A stretch of DNA of 64,000 nucleotides, taken from IMG/VR virus record IMGVR_UViG_3300010413_000017, positions 9,861 through 73,860 of that record; one strand, given 5' to 3'. Within the stretch, counting starts at the first letter, position 1; each line of letters starts with the position of its first letter. Under the pieces are notes generated by a model. It had not been told where the DNA came from and did no database searches. It saw only the letters and a list, made by a program, of their open reading frames with translations. Positions 3,874 to 56,017 of this stretch are shown in pieces. A program made the translations under genes and the position numbers. Origin of the DNA: a virus.

Positions 3874-4893
3874 ATGGGCGACACAACTGAGAACAAAATT
3901 TTCTATAAACCAGACCACAATACCAGTGGAACTGGGGAGAAGGCATCTTTTGACGCTGGGTTAACATTGGCAGATAAGATGATTCTCCAAAGTGCTGCCC
4001 CAGGCGTTTTGGTCAACGGAAAACTAGCTGTCTCCTTTAATTCCGGCACTCTATATGTAGGAATTAAAACAGCTGACGAAGGAACTCCGTCTCCGACCAA
4101 TCCTGTATTTTGCAGAGTTGGAGCTAGGGTTGTAACAATAACTTCTGCTCTAGAGATGAATAAAGCATCTAGTGGCCTAGGAGCAGGAAGTTCTTGGTTA
4201 CATTTAGCACAACCTGCTACGAGTGGCTACGAGACAGATTTGTTTGCTTATATAGGATATGATGAAACAAACCAAGAGCCAATGTTGTTGGTTTCGAGAA
4301 GCGGATGGCACGACCGTCATGCTTTTAACTCCGAAACCTCTGGACGTGGTGCTTTAACCAGTCAAGCATCTTTAGCTACCTTTACAGGTGAAGATATTGC
4401 GGTATGTGGACGGTTTAATACCGTTCTTACTACGCCTAATAATTGGTCTAGTCCGGCATCCCCATTGGTTGTCCAAAAACCCATTACCCAGACTCGTATG
4501 CTTAATTGGAACCCTATGTTTGTTGTCCCATACGGAGGTTCTCTGAGTCCCGGAACATATAACTTGGCTATTTACCAAATGGAAGGGAAATTTTTTAACT
4601 CTTATGTATTTGGTTACTTTAATTACTCAGCAGCCCCAACTACCTTGGCAGACTATTTGGAACTTACCCTACCACATTCATCTCAGTCTCCAAATTTTTC
4701 TATTTGGCAAGCGCTGGGTAGGTACAGGGACTATGGGACGGGTGCTTATGGTATTGTGATAGGTATGTGTAGTGATACAAATACATGGCGGATACATAAG
4801 AGTGATTTAGCGTCATTCTCTCTTGGAACTATTTATTTGAGCTTTTATGTCCGACATTTTATTCCGGGTACTATATTTAAGTTTGACATATAA
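3874..4893 (+). CDS. Virion tail or fibre-associated protein, paralog B
   Basis: Full-length paralog of 2842-3864 (shared ADKMILQSAAPGVLVNGKL, SRSGWHDRHAFN, YQMEGKFFN). Confidence 0.6.
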   Translation: MGDTTENKIFYKPDHNTSGTGEKASFDAGLTLADKMILQSAAPGVLVNGKLAVSFNSGTLYVGIKTADEGTPSPTNPVFCRVGARVVTITSALEMNKASSGLGAGSSWLHLAQPATSGYETDLFAYIGYDETNQEPMLLVSRSGWHDRHAFNSETSGRGALTSQASLATFTGEDIAVCGRFNTVLTTPNNWSSPASPLVVQKPITQTRMLNWNPMFVVPYGGSLSPGTYNLAIYQMEGKFFNSYVFGYFNYSAAPTTLADYLELTLPHSSQSPNFSIWQALGRYRDYGTGAYGIVIGMCSDTNTWRIHKSDLASFSLGTIYLSFYVRHFIPGTIFKFDI

Positions 4894-48696: not shown

Positions 48697-49770
48697 TTAT
48701 CGTTTGGTGAACCTGCTTTTGCGTTTTGGTACTACAGCGGCCTCCACTTCTAGCCAGTCCTTCTCGGCAAGCGTTTTGAGTTCTGCTAAGTCTTCGGGAG
48801 AGTCCTCAAGGAATGAAATGAATGACTGGCGTTTAAACGTCTTGTCGCCCCACTTAATCTCTTTGTCCCCATACATATAGTCAATGAGGGAATTAATATC
48901 GTCTATGCCGTAGTCGAACAAAATGGAAAACTCGGCCATACGAAACGGTTTTGCTACTTTGTTGCGTTTGAAATTAGCCTTGACTGTCACCCCATATGTG
49001 CGTTTCTGTCCACGAAACGTTTTATCCAGCTTGCCGGTGTGGGCTAACCAGCATACTTGGTGTGTATAAAAATCGAGGGCTTTGCCGCCAGTTCTATAGT
49101 GCTTCTCACCAAACATCTGCCCAATCTTTTCTCGTACTTGAGAAATACAAATAAGTGTGGAATCCTTGCCTTGCATACTTTTACACAGATGATTGAAAAA
49201 ACCTGAGCTAAAAAACTTAGCCTTCTCTGCGCCCATAGAACCGGGGGCTTTCTGTTCGTCAAGTATTTTTTGCATTCTGTCAGCCGCCGCGTCTGGCACA
49301 AGTGCGTCGACTGAATCTATAACATAAATCAGACACTGCCCGGGTGTGAGAGCGTTAACGCGCCTAAGATAATCTGTCCCGAAATCCTCCGCGATGGGTG
49401 TCTGAATCCATGTGACAGCGCTAACGAAGTCATCTCCATACATGTCTTCGATGGGGAAGTCCATGACTCCTTCAACGTTGTTGTAAACGATGAAAAGCTC
49501 TTTTATGGGCGGATAGAGGGCAGAGGGTTTCGCTTTTAAGTTGTAAAAAGCGTGGGCGCAAGCCTCCAAGGAGAGGAGCGTTTTCCCGCTTGAGCCGTCT
49601 CCGACAATGTTAACAATCCTACCTCTGGCCCAACCTCCACTTAGACCTCTTTGGGAGGCGGCGAGGTTGAGCAGGGTCGAGCCCGTATCAATGAACTCGA
49701 CCCTTTCACCCCGCTCCACTGGCTTCCGTGCCAGCTTCTCTGTTTCCTCGACGATTGCTGATTTAGCCAT
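48697..49770 (-). CDS. RecA/UvsX-like recombinase
   Basis: IDTGS..LN, GRIVNI.GDGSSGKT, IDSVDAL, SQVREKIG, TGGKALDFY, KVAKPFR. Confidence 0.92.
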   Translation of the reverse strand: MAKSAIVEETEKLARKPVERGERVEFIDTGSTLLNLAASQRGLSGGWARGRIVNIVGDGSSGKTLLSLEACAHAFYNLKAKPSALYPPIKELFIVYNNVEGVMDFPIEDMYGDDFVSAVTWIQTPIAEDFGTDYLRRVNALTPGQCLIYVIDSVDALVPDAAADRMQKILDEQKAPGSMGAEKAKFFSSGFFNHLCKSMQGKDSTLICISQVREKIGQMFGEKHYRTGGKALDFYTHQVCWLAHTGKLDKTFRGQKRTYGVTVKANFKRNKVAKPFRMAEFSILFDYGIDDINSLIDYMYGDKEIKWGDKTFKRQSFISFLEDSPEDLAELKTLAEKDWLEVEAAVVPKRKSRFTKR

Positions 49771-50762
49771 TATCTACGCCGTCTCGGAGTTGGACGGGGA
49801 GCCTCTTCCTCTTCATACTCCTCATCAGGTTGTACCTCTTCTCTTTCGGCTTCTTCTTCTGCGTACTCTGACTGCCAAAGTTCATGGCAAGGATTGTAGA
49901 GTTCGCATCCGGACAAGCACTCTTCATACGCCTCAAACGATTCTCCAAAGACCCCACCATGAGGACAGGTAGGAGAACTCTTTTTGAAGCTTCTGGGAGT
50001 CCCCGGCACAGTTTCAGCCGCCATATCCTCAACTTCCAGACCAGCCCAGAACGCCTTTTTGACCTGCTCATAGGTCGGAATGTCGAGCAGTTCATCTAAG
50101 GTCGGAACGTTGTCGATGATTGAGTCAGGAATATCATCTTCACGCTCTGAGAACTGAAAGCCAGTCCACTGTTGCTGAGTTTTACTGCCTTTGATTTGGA
50201 AGGCGATGGAGCGTCCCTCTTCGGCAGTCGGGTCAGCAAAGGCGACAACCCCGCCAGTCCGAGGCTTTTTGCAGATGTTCATGACGTTATTCTGGAAGAA
50301 CCAATGAGCCACAGTCCAGATTTGAATGCCTTTAGACTCGTTGTCTCTGTCCAGAATGGCGTAGACTGAATACCGCTTCGGACGTGCACTATCAATCTGG
50401 CCTTTAACATCGTCAGAGGGATTGTCTACCCGCCTTAACTTCTCGCGGTATTCGCAGATAGGACAGTTCTTGTTGTATGTCCTAAAGAGGCAGATGAAAT
50501 CGTCCTCATTAGGTCCGATAAACCTATGGACATAGAGGTCGACAAGGTAAGTGGGTTCTCCCTCGTTCTTCACAGGGTCATTTGGGCCTGCGAAGTAGGG
50601 GAGGACATCAACAAGATGTTCGCCAATATCCGGGTTGAAGATTGACAAGCTACCTAACTTGTTTCTGTCCAGAATCCCCCTTCGCCTGTCTTCTCGGGTG
50701 TCATAGGTTTCCTGCGTGCGTTGGCGTAAGCCCGCACTAAGTGCTTTTCTGCGATCTTTCAA
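49770..50762 (-). CDS. Single-stranded DNA-binding protein (gp32-like)
   Basis: H...C......CPICE zinc motif, very acidic C-terminus; lies between UvsY-like and RecA genes. Confidence 0.75.
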   Translation of the reverse strand: MKDRRKALSAGLRQRTQETYDTREDRRRGILDRNKLGSLSIFNPDIGEHLVDVLPYFAGPNDPVKNEGEPTYLVDLYVHRFIGPNEDDFICLFRTYNKNCPICEYREKLRRVDNPSDDVKGQIDSARPKRYSVYAILDRDNESKGIQIWTVAHWFFQNNVMNICKKPRTGGVVAFADPTAEEGRSIAFQIKGSKTQQQWTGFQFSEREDDIPDSIIDNVPTLDELLDIPTYEQVKKAFWAGLEVEDMAAETVPGTPRSFKKSSPTCPHGGVFGESFEAYEECLSGCELYNPCHELWQSEYAEEEAEREEVQPDEEYEEEEAPRPTPRRRR

Positions 50763-50800: not shown

Positions 50801-51292
50801 TTACTGCGCCGGAACAGCTGAACGGCTAGGACGCTTTTCTCCAAGCGCCTCCTTGAGTTTCTTACTGACCTGTTCCTGAACAAGGTCAGCACCAACAGTG
50901 CTACGCGGCTCGGAGAAGTAGCTGGTCAGGTGCAAATCAACCAGCTTTTCCAAGCCCTTGCGCTTGTGTTCCAAAGCCCGAACGACGGCTCGGAGCATAT
51001 TCAGCTCGTATTTAGCGAGGATGATTTCCTCTTCCAGTTCTTGGAATTCGGGCTGTCTGGCGATGAAGTTTTTGAGGACAGCTTCTGTGACACGTTCTGT
51101 TGCAGTTTCTCTGAGTTGTTGGTCGAGCTGAGCGATTAAGACATCTTTCCTGAGTTCCAAGCGTGAGACTACACGCTCGGCTTCGACTGCCTGCTCGCTA
51201 TAGCTCAACACGTTGCTAGGATGTTTTACCCATTCGTCGTCGAGGGCAAATTTGTCAATGCTGACATCTGCCTCTACCTGAGATTTGTCCAT
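50801..51292 (-). CDS. UvsY-like recombination mediator
   Basis: ID...LD.E....P, TE..L...I, AL..K...L..L..L....YF helical pattern; next to SSB and RecA. Confidence 0.7.
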   Translation of the reverse strand: MDKSQVEADVSIDKFALDDEWVKHPSNVLSYSEQAVEAERVVSRLELRKDVLIAQLDQQLRETATERVTEAVLKNFIARQPEFQELEEEIILAKYELNMLRAVVRALEHKRKGLEKLVDLHLTSYFSEPRSTVGADLVQEQVSKKLKEALGEKRPSRSAVPAQ

Positions 51293-51352
51293 AATTCCTC
51301 CTTACTTTATTATAGCCTGTACCGGCTATTTTGGAAGTTAAAAGTGTGAGTG

Positions 51353-51604
51353 CGCTCAGCTTCTTTGGGTTCCTTATTGTTTTTGGCTCGCTTTTGGTGT
51401 TTGGTGTCCTTGGACAAGATAGCTCGCTTGCCACTTTTGGGTTTCTTAGAGTCAATGGCTCGCTTTCCTCTGATGGGTTTCTTATTATAACTGGCTCGCT
51501 TGCCACTTTTGGGTTTCTTAACCTATAGGACTCGCTTCTGGTTAATGGGTTTCTTTATGCAGGTGGCTCGCTTATATCTGATGGGTGCCTTGGGCGTGTT
51601 GACT
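51353..51604 (-). ncRNA. TIGR-type guide array downstream of the tas gene: 7 x 36-nt units
   Basis: Exact 36-nt period, AGCCA-N9-AGAAACCCA-N9-AGCG, with two variable 9-mers per unit. Confidence 0.9.
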
Positions 51605-52632
51605 TAAGCCACATCGTCAGGTGAAACAGACTCTCGTCCGGCCTCTACAGGAACCGGTGTAGCGTCATAAACCCAGCCACGTTCCTCTGGCATAATCGTT
51701 CTGTGCGGCCCGTCTAGAACTGCCTCTGCGTATAGAGGTGAAGTAGGTAATCCCAAAAGTGTTCTGCCTACATACCAATAGTCCGCAAGGAAGTGCTTCA
51801 TAATGACACGCAGTGCGGCCATGTGCCTGTGATTAGGAACGGTCTCTTTCCATGGTTTCTCGACAAGCCTGTGCCGACCGTTATGTAAGCCAAATGTCTT
51901 AACAAGTTTCTCAGAGTTATCCAACTTGGAGCGCGTTTTGTCGTACAGATAACCATACGCGCTACCTTTGTTCCTCTGTTTCATCTGTGAGTTAGCCATA
52001 GTGAAGAGAGCAGTCCGAAGAGACCTGTTACCACCACTAGGTTCCCCCGGAGTATAGCGGGCGTGGGCGGGAGTGTGCAGTCCAGTGTACCTCCACAGAC
52101 TGGAGGCGTGCTTCGCCTTTGCCAGATCTATGTAGACAAGGCAGTAAGCTATGGTCACAAAGCCAACAGAATGTACTCCCAATGCGGCTTGCACCAACGG
52201 GTTCGTTTGGGCAATCTCGTTAACCGTTTTTTTGAGTGCGTGCGTACGCTTGCTCAACAGAGACGTTAATTGGTCGAGTTGTATAGACAGAAACTCGGCT
52301 GTTTCTGGGTTAAGAGTATCTGTACGCCTTCGATACGCGCGTAACTGATTGCCGATTTTGGTGTGGAGTTTCAAGACTTGGTTCCTGTCATCCACTTGGG
52401 CTTTGAGACGTTCAAACAGTTCAGGACGCTCCCGAAAGATGCCATGGTGCCGCATGTGAGTGATGGGGTCTACCACGCATGTGTTATCGGGAGTATACCT
52501 TCCACCTTTGCTTTTGGGTTTCAGCCTGTGTGTGTCGAAGCTTTCAGTAGGTTCACCTAGTGGTTGTCCAGTAAATGCGTCAACTCCAAGTTGTTTCTCC
52601 TTAGTCGTACGTTTCAGTTCTTCTTTTGCCAC
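51604..52632 (-). CDS. tasH: TasH-like RNA-guided nuclease: N-terminal HNH plus coiled coil plus Nop/IS110-like RNA-binding domain
   Basis: DTHR..PKSKGG.Y..DN......H...H HNH motif; VG..T.A.....ID......SSLWRYTGL...GN..LRT IS110/Nop-like domain; no DEDD RuvC; flanked by 36-nt arrays. Confidence 0.85.
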   Translation of the reverse strand: MAKEELKRTTKEKQLGVDAFTGQPLGEPTESFDTHRLKPKSKGGRYTPDNTCVVDPITHMRHHGIFRERPELFERLKAQVDDRNQVLKLHTKIGNQLRAYRRRTDTLNPETAEFLSIQLDQLTSLLSKRTHALKKTVNEIAQTNPLVQAALGVHSVGFVTIAYCLVYIDLAKAKHASSLWRYTGLHTPAHARYTPGEPSGGNRSLRTALFTMANSQMKQRNKGSAYGYLYDKTRSKLDNSEKLVKTFGLHNGRHRLVEKPWKETVPNHRHMAALRVIMKHFLADYWYVGRTLLGLPTSPLYAEAVLDGPHRTIMPEERGWVYDATPVPVEAGRESVSPDDVA

Positions 52633-52654
52633 GCTGTGCTCTCCTTTTGAGATT

Positions 52655-52798
52655 CGTTACTAAACGCTGGGTTTCTTCAAACTGATGGCTCGCTTAAGGT
52701 TTTTGGGTTTCTTGAGTATGCTGACTCGCTTTCCAATGTTGGGTTTCTTAGATGATGTGGCTCACTTGGTATTTATGGGTTTCTTTCAGGGCTTGGCT
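52655..52798 (-). ncRNA. TIGR-type guide array upstream of the tas gene: 4 x 36-nt units
   Basis: Same repeat consensus and 36-nt period as 51353-51604. Confidence 0.9.
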
Positions 52799-52808
52799 CT
52801 TACCTAGT

Positions 52809-55472
52809 TTATAGCCCGTTGGGGGCGTACTTCCCATCTAAAAACTCAGTATAGGGAACCTTTTTCTTAGTTGACCAAGGAGCGTCGATATCACACAACT
52901 CGAACTCAACTTCGAGTGGCACGTTACACCAAGAATGTACTTGCAACGCCCTTTCAGACATAATCCAGTTCGCCATAGTCACAACTCGATGAAGTTCCTC
53001 TGGCTGAACACTCAGCAAAATACAATCGTGAATCTGGCCGAGGATAACTGAACTTAGCCTGTCTTTTTTTAGAAACTTGCTGAGTTCTATCAGGCTCCAC
53101 AGTAAGATATGAAAAGCTGTTCCCTGAATTGGAGTGTTCAAAATCTCATTCCTAGCCAAGTAGCCTTGGCGTCTGAACCCATATTTGAGGGGTACACGAC
53201 CGGTCTTATAATAGCGTGCTACCCATTTTTCTTTCCATTTGGCGTAGGTAGAGAACTGTTTCCAGAACCTGTTCTCTTCTGCTTGAATGTGCTCTGTGAA
53301 AACATCCAAAGAAGTAAGCTTCTGGTTCATTAAATGTTCTCGTAAAGAAGAGCCGTCGGCAAGGAGTAGTTGCTCTCCGTCTTTCCAGAGTTTCTCAGCA
53401 CAAGGTCTGTACCACGAGCCGTATAACTGAGCAAAAACAAACGCTCCTTTAACAAGATTGCGTACAGCTTTTGTAATCTGGTCTCGGGGTAATAGGTATA
53501 CTCGTTCGGTCTGGTCCCTGTGCATATCTGACGTGGGGTCTTTACAGTAACGAATAAGTTCAGGGTCTTGGGTGAACGTTGCCGCAATCCGGACTTCGTG
53601 CATTCCAAAGTCTATTTCAAGAAGTTGTTGGCCGTGATGAGGAAACATACCGCTTCGCACAAGCTGAGTCATACGCTCGTCGCGAGCTGGAATGTTTTGT
53701 AAATTAGGACGGCTCGATGAACCTCGATATGTTCTTACTCTGTGAAGATGGAAAAAGGGATGTAAAGTCTCCTTATAGATTTCACGGATAATCCCTTTTA
53801 TATAGGTAGATTCAGTTTTAGTTGCACTACGGAGTCGAGTTACATCAATCAAGAAAGAGCGTAGACTCTGTTGTGGAAGAGTCCGAGAGAACTCCTCAAT
53901 GTCCTCTTTGTCTAAGGTGGGATTTCCCTTCGCTGACTTCTTCCTAGGTTCGATCCCAACATAGTCAAAGAGAAGAGTTTTGAGTTGTGGAGCAGACCCG
54001 GGGTTAAGTGGAACGCCTGTCTTCTTTTCCCATAACCGAGCGTAGTGAGAGTCCATGACTCTCGCTTTTGCGGCCTTGCTCTCCTCTGAGATAGTGGTAA
54101 ACGCTTCTTGGAATACCTCAGAGGAAGCTCTAAAGCCTGTTATTTCGCAGTCAAGCAACGCCAAAGAACCTTCGTGAAAGAATTCGTATGCTTTGGGTAG
54201 TTTGCTTTCCAACTGCATTTCTGCCATTTGGTCGAGTGCTAATCTGTGAGCGAGCATGGCGTCCAAGGCGTTCCGCAGAAGTAACTTGTCAATCGGACAT
54301 TCTTTGACTCTGTTCACTCCATTGGCTGTCTCTGTCTTCATGTAGGGGCTAGTTTCATCTTTGAACCCCACAACACCGTAGCGCACAAACGCCTGAAACT
54401 CCAAACTAGTTATTCCATGTCTGTCGTCCAGCACATGCGAAGCTAGCTGAGAGCACCAACGCCAATTAGCAATCTCTGTTCCCAAAATTATCCTAGCCCA
54501 GAGTTCCTCAAACTTAAAATTGTGGGCGGTCTTACCGATGCTTTTCTCTTTTATCACTCGCAGTAGCGCTGGAACAACTTCGGGAGTAACAGGGAAGGAA
54601 ACTCCGTGTTCAGGGTTCCATGCTAAGGCACAAGTGACAATCTCATGGTCTGGGGCGAAGGGCTTGAGTCCCGTTGTTTCCCAGTCTAGAGTCAACAGAG
54701 GAGGCTTATTCTCGACTAGGTTATCTAACAAACTGATAATGTCTCCTTGCTGATAAAGACACTCGACTTTGTCTGCTTCGTTTGTCAGGTCTGGAAAAGG
54801 TCTAAGTGCCTTTTCAATCGCTACCCCCATCTTGAGTTTATAAATCTCGATGAGTTTGCTATTCATTCCGTATTGAAAAAAGGACGGATGATATTGCGGA
54901 ATAACCCAACATCCTAGTGTCCTGTCTGGAATGGCCCAATCTGCCCACTGTGATATTGCAGGGCGTTCTCCACTAATGTCTAATGGCAGCATGTAGGATT
55001 GTAGTGGGACACGCCCCGCGATAATAATAGCCTTGGGTTTGAACTCTCTGATACGCTTCCAAGTTCCTGCGTGGCAGAGTGCAACCTCTCTGTCAGTTGG
55101 GCTCCTATTGCTACCCCGCTCACCGATTGGACGACACCGCACAGCATTGAGTTTACAGAAGTCAACATCTAAGTCGTAACCTAACGGAGCAAGAACATCG
55201 TTTCTAAGGAGCTGACCTGCGCTCCCGCACAACTGGTATCCTCTTTCATCTTCTGTTGCGCCTTGTGCTTCGCTCAAAAAGAGTATGCCTGTCCTGCCCT
55301 CTCCTGTAATCCCCATCATCGGGTGTTTGTTAGTTTTATACATGCCGCACTCTTCGCAGGGAGGAAGGTCTGGCTTTTTCGCTTTAGTGGAAGTTCTCTT
55401 CGTTGCCTTTCTTTTGGGCTTTGTCGGGGTGAGTTCAACATCTTCTAATTCAAAAAACCCTTTTCGCCTCAT
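52809..55472 (-). CDS. polA: Family A DNA polymerase with N-terminal uracil-DNA-glycosylase-like domain and 3'-5' exonuclease
   Basis: C..C, EAQG..ED, NAVRCRP, HPS (family 4 UDG-like); DWETTG, HN.KFE exonuclease; PNLQNIP, DF...EVR, K..F...YG, NTPIQG, QIHD. Confidence 0.93.
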   Translation of the reverse strand: MRRKGFFELEDVELTPTKPKRKATKRTSTKAKKPDLPPCEECGMYKTNKHPMMGITGEGRTGILFLSEAQGATEDERGYQLCGSAGQLLRNDVLAPLGYDLDVDFCKLNAVRCRPIGERGSNRSPTDREVALCHAGTWKRIREFKPKAIIIAGRVPLQSYMLPLDISGERPAISQWADWAIPDRTLGCWVIPQYHPSFFQYGMNSKLIEIYKLKMGVAIEKALRPFPDLTNEADKVECLYQQGDIISLLDNLVENKPPLLTLDWETTGLKPFAPDHEIVTCALAWNPEHGVSFPVTPEVVPALLRVIKEKSIGKTAHNFKFEELWARIILGTEIANWRWCSQLASHVLDDRHGITSLEFQAFVRYGVVGFKDETSPYMKTETANGVNRVKECPIDKLLLRNALDAMLAHRLALDQMAEMQLESKLPKAYEFFHEGSLALLDCEITGFRASSEVFQEAFTTISEESKAAKARVMDSHYARLWEKKTGVPLNPGSAPQLKTLLFDYVGIEPRKKSAKGNPTLDKEDIEEFSRTLPQQSLRSFLIDVTRLRSATKTESTYIKGIIREIYKETLHPFFHLHRVRTYRGSSSRPNLQNIPARDERMTQLVRSGMFPHHGQQLLEIDFGMHEVRIAATFTQDPELIRYCKDPTSDMHRDQTERVYLLPRDQITKAVRNLVKGAFVFAQLYGSWYRPCAEKLWKDGEQLLLADGSSLREHLMNQKLTSLDVFTEHIQAEENRFWKQFSTYAKWKEKWVARYYKTGRVPLKYGFRRQGYLARNEILNTPIQGTAFHILLWSLIELSKFLKKDRLSSVILGQIHDCILLSVQPEELHRVVTMANWIMSERALQVHSWCNVPLEVEFELCDIDAPWSTKKKVPYTEFLDGKYAPNGL

Positions 55473-56017
55473 AAACCTAACCCCTTTTGTGCTTGTATGT
55501 CGTTTCCCCACACATCCCATCCCTTTACTTTACGTCTAGCGAATAACTCAATGTAAGGAGGATGAGATACAACCTCAATCATTTGACGCATAACTTCGGG
55601 TTTGACAGAATGCTCAGTTCGGGGTGCTAAAAATGCTGTTCTACCTTGGGCTCGTTTCCCCGAGATGTCTTGCTTATACGGCAACGTCTTATGGGTTCCA
55701 AATAAACAGTGCTCAGTCATCCCGCGAAAGTACTGTCCCAAACCTATTCTATCCTTAATCCAAGTAATACAAGTTTTGTAAACAAAATCCCACCGTCCCA
55801 TGATTTCTATAGCGTGAGGTAAGTAGTTATTTGTCGTCCATAGGTAGAGGTGACAACCCTCGGGATGAATTAAGGTATTGACAGGAAGACTCATTATTTC
55901 TTTAATGGACATAAGCGGGTAGTGGCGATCTGCCCCACGCTTAATCTTGCCTCCGCCGTATTCAGGCCAAGGCGGGTCGACATAGATTGTCTTATATTTA
56001 CCTTTTGGAAAATCCAC
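55469..56017 (-). CDS. MT-A70 family N6-adenine methyltransferase
   Basis: DPPW, HY..M, LYLWTTN, G.G.YFR..TEH, HS.KP, IELFAR...GW..WGN. Confidence 0.92.
   Translation of the reverse strand: MDFPKGKYKTIYVDPPWPEYGGGKIKRGADRHYPLMSIKEIMSLPVNTLIHPEGCHLYLWTTNNYLPHAIEIMGRWDFVYKTCITWIKDRIGLGQYFRGMTEHCLFGTHKTLPYKQDISGKRAQGRTAFLAPRTEHSVKPEVMRQMIEVVSHPPYIELFARRKVKGWDVWGNDIQAQKGLGL

Follow-up and report, generated by a model that had tools for sequence, protein, structure and literature searches.

What is encoded by a phage gene that is flanked on both sides by short alternating repeats, and why does one of the half-guides held between these repeats occur twice with different partners? The locus belongs to an uncultured phage and lies in a 64,000-nt stretch of DNA (the window) that corresponds to bases 9861-73860 of a single 73,860-bp contig (IMG/VR record IMGVR_UViG_3300010413_000017). 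The gene, tasH (51604-52632, minus strand), is bordered by arrays with a 36-nt period, comprising four units upstream and seven units downstream. Within the published TIGR-TasH family, the locus is unexceptional. The identity of the system and a guide grammar of 8+8 variable nt are, jointly, very probable, and we also regard as likely the fuller reading, in which a TIGR-TasH RNA-guided DNA-targeting system sits in the phage replication module and re-uses its half-guides by recombination.

Identity of the system and length of its guides

In an 18-nt register on the minus strand (Tandem Repeats Finder reported a period of 36/72 for the downstream array), each half-unit consists of a conserved 10-mer followed by eight variable bases. 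Edge (AAGCGAGCCA) and loop (AAGAAACCCA) 10-mers follow each other in alternation, giving a 36-nt unit in the order 10-nt edge, 8-nt spacer A, 10-nt loop and 8-nt spacer B. Both repeats read AAG....CCA, with a box D-like AG near the start and the box C sequence CCA at the end. The arrays directly adjoin tasH and share its strand.

TasH (342 aa, GTG start, assigned from the open reading frame (ORF) call and homology to SpTasH) carries an N-terminal HNH motif (DTHR...GG...PDN...HMRHH), followed by a coiled coil and a Nop-type RNA-binding domain. Using phmmer, residues 14-323 matched SpTasH chains in eight PDB entries with an E value of 5.6e-82 (9W02-9W04, 9VZX, 21KL), and tblastn gave 45.5% identity across 94% of the protein to TasH of Salicola phage CGphi29; by these matches the Nop-type domain is homologous to that of characterised Tas proteins. 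The HNH residues DTHR...GG.Y...N...H..HH are intact in an alignment of 22 family proteins, the first position of the motif being alternately D or H within the family. Residues W249, H256, H268, R278, Y289 and R305 of SpTasH correspond to W261, H268, H280, R290, Y301 and R318 here, and Y301 is unchanged in 22/22 family proteins. H310 is found in ...LDGPHRT..., where most relatives show LGG.HRT, and lies two residues downstream of the position of SpTasH H296, as in most relatives, in a loop whose alignment is approximate. In this alignment Y301 and H310 provide the Tyr/His processing dyad (Y289/H296 in SpTasH).

The Pfam searches point the other way. They returned neither an HNH family (E up to 1) nor a Nop family in TasH, and the best match was a sub-threshold hit to the IS110-type Transposase_20 (E 0.021). 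Because no Pfam model reached its threshold, the domain calls rest on homology to SpTasH. An IS110-type comparison structure (PDB 9MTY) was matched by TasH at E 1e-7. The protein also has a 19-aa C-terminal extension, DATPVPVEAGRESVSPDDVA (window 51604-51660, minus), which is present neither in SpTasH nor in most of the aligned relatives; it enters the truncated first edge repeat of the downstream array, so that the tasH stop codon falls inside the repeat.

An earlier interpretation of this DNA, made from its letters alone (the sequence-only reading), had drawn attention to an A at position 9, counted from the start of each spacer, and proposed that either the programmable length is only 8+8 nt or the targets share a fixed central A/T dinucleotide comparable to the IS110 core. 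Its counts are exact: A follows 11/11 A-spacers and 9/11 B-spacers. The two remaining cases are the last B of each array, preceding the degenerate terminal edges TAACGAATCT and GAGCGCACTC. The A at position 9 is the first base of the next 10-nt repeat, just before the box D-like AG. It is assigned to the repeat because it is lost together with the repeat at the array ends and is conserved like the repeat columns in related loci.

These relatives were collected by protein similarity from IMG/VR (16 loci) and from metagenomes (71 loci), with a further 30 IMG/VR loci found by repeat pattern. The non-redundant set comprises 63 loci, the window included, with 647 units and 4,210 unit pairs, and the pattern-derived loci raise it to 82. 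Across the 63 loci, half-unit columns 1-10 are conserved and columns 11-18 are essentially without information; in the 62 loci other than the window, the two groups of columns carry 0.6-1.9 bits and ~0 bits, respectively. In the same 62 loci, column 1 is A in 90.3% of 1,274 half-units, which were picked without use of column 1, and spacer length is 8 nt in 98%.

The closest characterised system shows the same arrangement. An alignment to published TIGR repeats, proposed by the sequence-only reading, showed that the edge is identical to that of SpTIGR: in the SpTIGR array of NC_020844.1 the edge is AAGCGAGCCA, the loop is AAGACAACCA and the variable stretches are 8 nt long. The leading base there is A in 18/20 half-units, and the last edge starts with G (GAGCGAGCCC). 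Faure et al. 2025 (PMC12045711) count 16 variable nt in SpTIGR, two fewer than the 18 of their TasR and TasA examples. In the cryogenic electron microscopy (cryo-EM) work of Guan et al. 2026 (bioRxiv 10.64898/2026.08.11.744272), spacer A forms a duplex of 8 nt, and in the SpTasH structures the target is numbered so that 16 contiguous bp are unwound and the flanking duplex begins at position 17 (PMC13421893). A programmable length of 8+8 nt was therefore the right choice of the two, and one already published for SpTIGR-TasH. The suggestion that AG marks a new repeat variant arose from the difference between the UG of TasR, where box D is UG (PMC12045711), and the AG of TasH; it falls, since SpTIGR has AAG...CCA repeats as well as the identical edge, and UG is the TasR form.

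In the alternative, the ninth position would be a true guide base, spacers would be 9+9 nt and every natural target would have a fixed central A/T pair like the IS110 core. TasR lends this some weight, as its spacers are 9 nt long and all nine pair with the target (PMC12045711), whereas the TasH arrays have that position fixed as A; moreover, the published screens for a target-adjacent motif (TAM) covered the target flanks and not the target centre. The behaviour of the A is hard to reconcile with such a guide base, however, because the base is missing at precisely the two array ends, where the next repeat has degenerated, and because in 62 loci whose spacers are unrelated it is conserved to the same degree as the rest of the repeat. 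The published 16 variable nt of SpTIGR, the 8-nt spacer A duplex and the contiguous 16-bp target speak against it too. A DEDD recombinase domain was not found in TasH with Pfam or phmmer, and with an A that appears to act as a repeat base the locus would not group with IS110-like elements. We consider a guide-encoded ninth position very improbable, and the IS110-like core is set aside in favour of a repeat-encoded A.

A more distant array was seen in Microcystis phage Mvi-JY20 (PP438412.1; L002:3205-3530), which encodes a shorter, HNH-less relative with 29.5% identity in a 242-aa ORF annotated as hypothetical. After this ORF comes an array that the record does not annotate, in which 8-nt spacers separate the repeats ATGCGAGCCA and ACGAAACCCA. 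These repeats keep the leading A, with U or C rather than A as the next base, which extends the conservation of the A to outside the TasH clade.

Re-use of half-guides in the window and its relatives

The sequence-only reading reported that one B-spacer occurs twice with different A partners, and this is the case for AAAGTGGC (together with the following A, at 51437-51429 and 51509-51501). Copy 1 (51502-51509, minus) belongs to downstream unit 3 with partner A TATAGGTT, and copy 2 (51430-51437, minus) belongs to downstream unit 5 with partner A TTGACTCT; the two partners differ at 5/8 positions. When spacer letters were shuffled, any exact same-type pair among the 22 window spacers had p = 0.0027. 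Two B-spacers that both start with TCAGA (TCAGATAT and TCAGAGGA) had been listed alongside; they exist, but the resemblance is not significant, as a shared 5-nt prefix arises in 12% of shuffles and chance is the best reading for it. To ascribe the duplicate as well as TCAGA to coincidence between short, A-rich spacers is scarcely credible given the p value of the exact 8-mer and the family-wide excess, with 10 exact half-only matches observed against ~0.4 expected.

This excess comes from the related arrays. The same edge-A-loop-B grammar was identified in 82 related loci. Among the 63 non-redundant loci there are 7 exact whole-unit duplicates, and 8 pairs in which one half is exactly shared and the other differs at 4-7 positions, as random sequences would. 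The 10 exact half-only matches were found in the 82 loci; the between-locus exact-match rate of 3.2e-5 predicts ~0.27-0.37 for the two sets. As a control, A halves were compared with B halves, giving 0 exact matches in 8,420 comparisons. Partner halves fall into two classes, nearly identical ones and ones as different as random sequences (3-7 mismatches); a bimodal distribution of this kind points to replacement and not gradual divergence. Half-guides in the TasH clade are re-used with unrelated partners far above chance, a result that goes slightly beyond the literature.

Several related arrays retain footprints of how this happens. One (L088) reads [A1 B1][A2 B1][A2 B2], which is precisely what results when two adjacent loop repeats undergo unequal crossing-over. 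Another (L009) has the same A-spacer and the same rare loop variant TAGATAACCA in both tas-flanking arrays, and in a third (L077) a multi-unit block is duplicated with a single B replaced. Related arrays compared pairwise (L003/L004, L049/L052, L051/L074, L054/L064 and L073/L087) differ by replacement or insertion of internal units and not by addition at one end, and in L003/L004 and L073/L087 some of the breakpoints lie in the loop repeat, leaving one half in common with different partners. Thus the A/B shuffling that the sequence-only reading had suggested looking for in arrays of related phages is found, with halves re-paired in L088, L003/L004 and L073/L087. These cases were read by hand; an automated breakpoint count (edge 52 vs loop 21) was discarded because it was inflated by duplicate contigs and repeated tokens. 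Swapped A/B pairs are represented by one weak case in 63 loci. Among ~1,350 family spacers no strong common motif was found, and AAAGTG was not enriched.

Recombination at the loop and edge repeats is most likely the best explanation of half-guide re-use. The claim of the sequence-only reading that guides diversify by recombination rather than by acquisition stands in its first half, with footprints in relatives that make recombination the most likely source of the re-used halves and no acquisition gene among the neighbouring genes. Its second half goes too far, as the data show the shuffling of existing halves and not the origin of new 8-mers.

For the window itself, where the copies carry no informative variant, recombination is proposed by analogy with the related arrays, and we favour it as the origin of the AAAGTGGC re-use by a slight degree only. 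Several observations weigh against it. The window copies of AAGAAACCCA-AAAGTGGC are without a hitch-hiking repeat variant and the adjoining units are not duplicated. The local unit order is not reproduced by a simple unequal crossover, and gene conversion or later loss would be needed. Across the downstream array, contigs from sequencing runs X2, X6 and X7 match the window at every base and show no joints; run X4 contributed no contig. No ongoing shuffling is thus seen, although contigs drop rare variants and their identity does not show that the array is stable. Chimeric guides may mostly be left without a matching 16-bp target, and the shuffling may be neutral noise, not a mechanism of diversification. 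The pattern of loop end, AAAGTGGC and edge start had no match in IMG/VR. In run X6, we also noticed a 180-nt contig on window 51473-51519 whose loose ends contain GGCTCGCTT, a second and different array with the same edge repeat, indicating that a related TIGR-bearing phage co-occurs with the window phage.

Re-use could instead reflect the targets, if the two guides were independently gained from, or selected on, two natural sites that share the 8-bp half-site GCCACTTT, in which case a lone half might support nicking. Two published properties of Tas proteins are compatible with this: a fully matched half with a partly matched partner gives single-strand cutting (TasR at E. coli wcaD, PMC12045711), and the two heteroduplexes are semi-independent modules (PMC13421893). 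In addition, two diverged loci (L014:2747-2764, 3978-3995 and L024:2300-2317, 2444-2461) share two identical B halves, CTATGCGT and AGCTCCCG, with unrelated A halves and different flanking repeats, and column-preserving shuffles produce any locus pair with at least two halves in common in 2% of cases only. This is a hint that common targets account for some of the shared half-sites. However, sharing between loci in total is at chance (11 observed vs 7.6 expected), and neither the phage genome nor the 315 kb of related loci yielded a target for any guide. In the 73.9-kb phage genome, scanned in four geometries, none of the 11 guides matched at one mismatch or fewer, and matches with 2-3 mismatches were near the shuffled background; 9 of the 11 window guides gave nothing at one mismatch or fewer in the related loci. 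Conversely, 645 foreign guides searched against the window phage gave one 1-mismatch match, where 1.06 are expected. The footprints in L088, L009 and L077 are those of DNA-level copying, in one case with a repeat variant carried along, and an exact match in the 8-nt register between independent acquisitions would be improbable without a motif that defines the boundaries. An origin in shared targets is therefore unlikely in our view.

Shared halves could also be a trace of spacer insertion, if a new 8-nt half entered together with a 28-nt duplication of repeat, half-spacer and repeat and neighbouring units consequently came to share one half. Neighbouring units that read [A B1][A B2], with nothing else duplicated, do occur (L038 and L119), the single replaced B in L077 lies inside an otherwise perfect duplicated block, and no adaptation genes are known for TIGR systems (PMC12045711; 10.64898/2026.09.09.750476). 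Yet these are only a handful of cases for which no enzyme can be proposed, the sharing units are non-adjacent in the window, L013 and L047, and L088 is fully accounted for by one unequal crossover. We judge insertion to be an improbable source, below that of shared targets, and retain recombination between repeats as the explanation of half-guide re-use.

How TIGR arrays gain spacers is stated as unknown (Faure et al. 2025, PMC12045711; Xu et al. 2026, 10.64898/2026.09.09.750476), and the footprint of half-unit recombination is a modest but testable lead on how these arrays change; it also bears on the stability of engineered TIGR arrays. More tentatively, the loop and edge 10-mers might serve as half-unit recombination sites, with phages re-pairing A and B halves and swapping internal cassettes as regular guide turnover, replacing an acquisition step or beside one, and AAAGTGGC being one such event; we put this forward as a possibility that is rather doubtful at present.

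Proposed mechanism and comparison with known systems

By homology with SpTasH, the arrays would be transcribed together with tasH, and TasH would cut the precursor in the middle of the edge repeat using Y301 and H310. The products would be 36-nt guides of the form AGCCA-A8-AAGAAACCCA-B8-AAGCG, the exact cut position being a tentative prediction. A TasH dimer would then engage a contiguous 16-bp site, spacers A and B each pairing with a different strand and no flanking motif being required, in line with the published lack of a targeting motif for TasH (PMC12045711), and the two HNH domains would cut both DNA strands. The edge repeat shows covariation that fits the proposed form of the guide. 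Across the 63 related loci (for example L003, L005 and L010; window 51384-51393), edge columns 4:7 are C:G in 48, U:A in 13 and U:G in 1, and columns 3:8 are G:C in 47, G:U in 7 and A:U in 7. These pairs would be the two that join the 5' and 3' edge halves and so close the processed guide, an arrangement published for TasR.

The AAAGTGGC duplication probably arose by copying between units at the DNA level, with the 10-nt loop and edge repeats acting as short homology. Unequal crossing-over, slippage or short-patch gene conversion could each be the route. Such copying would shuffle existing halves and does not account for the origin of new 8-mers.

The system resembles SpTIGR-TasH of Salicola phage CGphi29 most closely. 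The two have in common the HNH-coiled coil-Nop protein, the identical edge AAGCGAGCCA, 36-nt units with 8+8-nt spacers, the leading A, a terminal edge starting with G, the Tyr/His processing pair and a phage-borne location. They differ at 2/10 bases of the loop (AAGACAACCA in SpTIGR, AAGAAACCCA here) and in the first HNH position (Asp in SpTasH, His here); here the processing His lies two residues further on, and the C-terminal extension that overlaps the first edge repeat is a feature of the window protein. Arrays of four and seven units flank the gene here, whereas the stretch of the Salicola phage that we read has one downstream array of ~10 units. The window locus is placed in a replication module and that of the Salicola phage beside head genes, and the window system is known from sequence alone. 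It adds a further phage TIGR-TasH system having arrays on both sides of the gene.

In TaTIGR-TasR of Thermoproteota (Faure et al. 2025), too, the array alternates two repeats that each contain box D and box C, the guides are 36 nt long and tandem spacers recognise the two DNA strands. The TasR system differs in its RuvC nuclease, in its 9-nt repeats starting with UG and in its 9+9-nt spacers, where the TasH clade has a fixed A in the ninth position and AG as box D.

CRISPR systems with Cas1-Cas2 similarly have tandem repeat-spacer arrays that are processed to guides, and lose or duplicate units by recombination between repeats. No Cas family was found in the nine ORFs neighbouring the locus, which is thus not a CRISPR-Cas locus; it has two alternating 10-mer repeats, in contrast to the single 23-50-nt repeat of CRISPR, and two 8-nt spacers per guide. 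TasH arrays show internal unit replacement and not polarised addition at one end, and no motif like the CRISPR protospacer adjacent motif has been published for them. The IS110 bridge RNA system shares a Nop-like RNA-binding domain, seen here in the weak matches to Transposase_20 and 9MTY, and split guides reading both strands. In contrast to it, the window system lacks both a DEDD recombinase domain and a donor loop, encodes an array and not a single RNA, and gives no evidence of a fixed core dinucleotide.

Among all relatives found, the best Tas identity is 57%. TasH relatives were found in viral or metagenomic contigs only, with none in 185,579 prokaryote species genomes (one genome each), and the TasH clade therefore seems not to be resident in prophages of sequenced species. 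A DNA-level search of the phage collection gave no match to the locus.

Features of the arrays and their genomic neighbourhood

The upstream array (52660-52803, minus) consists of a 5'-truncated edge, GTAAGAGCCA, and its four units, and ends 27 nt before the tasH start codon. Its A and B spacers are AGCCCTGA and TAAATACC in unit 1, CATCATCT and ACATTGGA in unit 2, GCATACTC and AAAACCTT in unit 3, and TCAGTTTG and GCGTTTAG in unit 4. The degenerate terminal edge, followed by the tasH ribosome-binding region AAAGGAG, occupies 52642-52659 (minus).

The downstream array (51358-51609, minus) opens with a 5'-truncated first edge, GCTTAAGTCA, which holds the tasH stop codon, and has seven units. Unit 1 carries A ACACGCCC and the TCAGA-type B TCAGATAT, unit 2 carries A CCTGCATA and B TTAACCAG, unit 3 pairs TATAGGTT with the first copy of AAAGTGGC, unit 4 carries A GTTATAAT and B TCAGAGGA, unit 5 pairs TTGACTCT with the second copy, unit 6 carries A TCTTGTCC and B AACACCAA, and unit 7 carries A AAAACAAT and B AAGAAGCT. 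The terminal truncated edge and 8 nt follow at 51340-51357 (minus). Degenerate loops are confined to the outer units of this array (AAGGCACCCA in unit 1, AAGGACACCA in unit 6 and AAGGAACCCA in unit 7), just as the sequence-only reading had described. The edge of downstream unit 3 (window 51520-51537, minus) is AAGCGAGTCC and has no box C terminal A. This base is A in 98% of family repeats and has been reported to stack on a conserved His and Trp in SpTasH, and unit 3, one of the two carriers of AAAGTGGC, may be a decaying guide.

Phage sequence near-identical to the window is present in marine-sediment metagenomes, none of the listed runs being from RNA, and the phage DNA polymerase is at best ~25% identical to that of any isolated phage. 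The tasH gene and its arrays share the minus strand with the genes on either side of them, one for the DNA polymerase (52809-55520) and one without an assigned function (50801-51292). Nine nearby ORFs encode a family A DNA polymerase with a UDG domain, an MT-A70 protein, clamp-like, gp32-like and RecA-like proteins, a zinc-ribbon protein, a GT2 glycosyltransferase, a dCMP deaminase and one protein without a family match; no Cas1-, Cas2- or integrase-like gene was detected among them. No minus-strand terminator was called 3' of the downstream array, where a 6-bp hairpin (51312-51329) is not followed by a U-run. The RecA-like and gp32-like genes (window 48697-50762) are encoded directly 3' of the TIGR locus in the same operon-like block. 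Recombination machinery is thus found within ~2 kb of the downstream array, a proximity whose bearing on array recombination is circumstantial.

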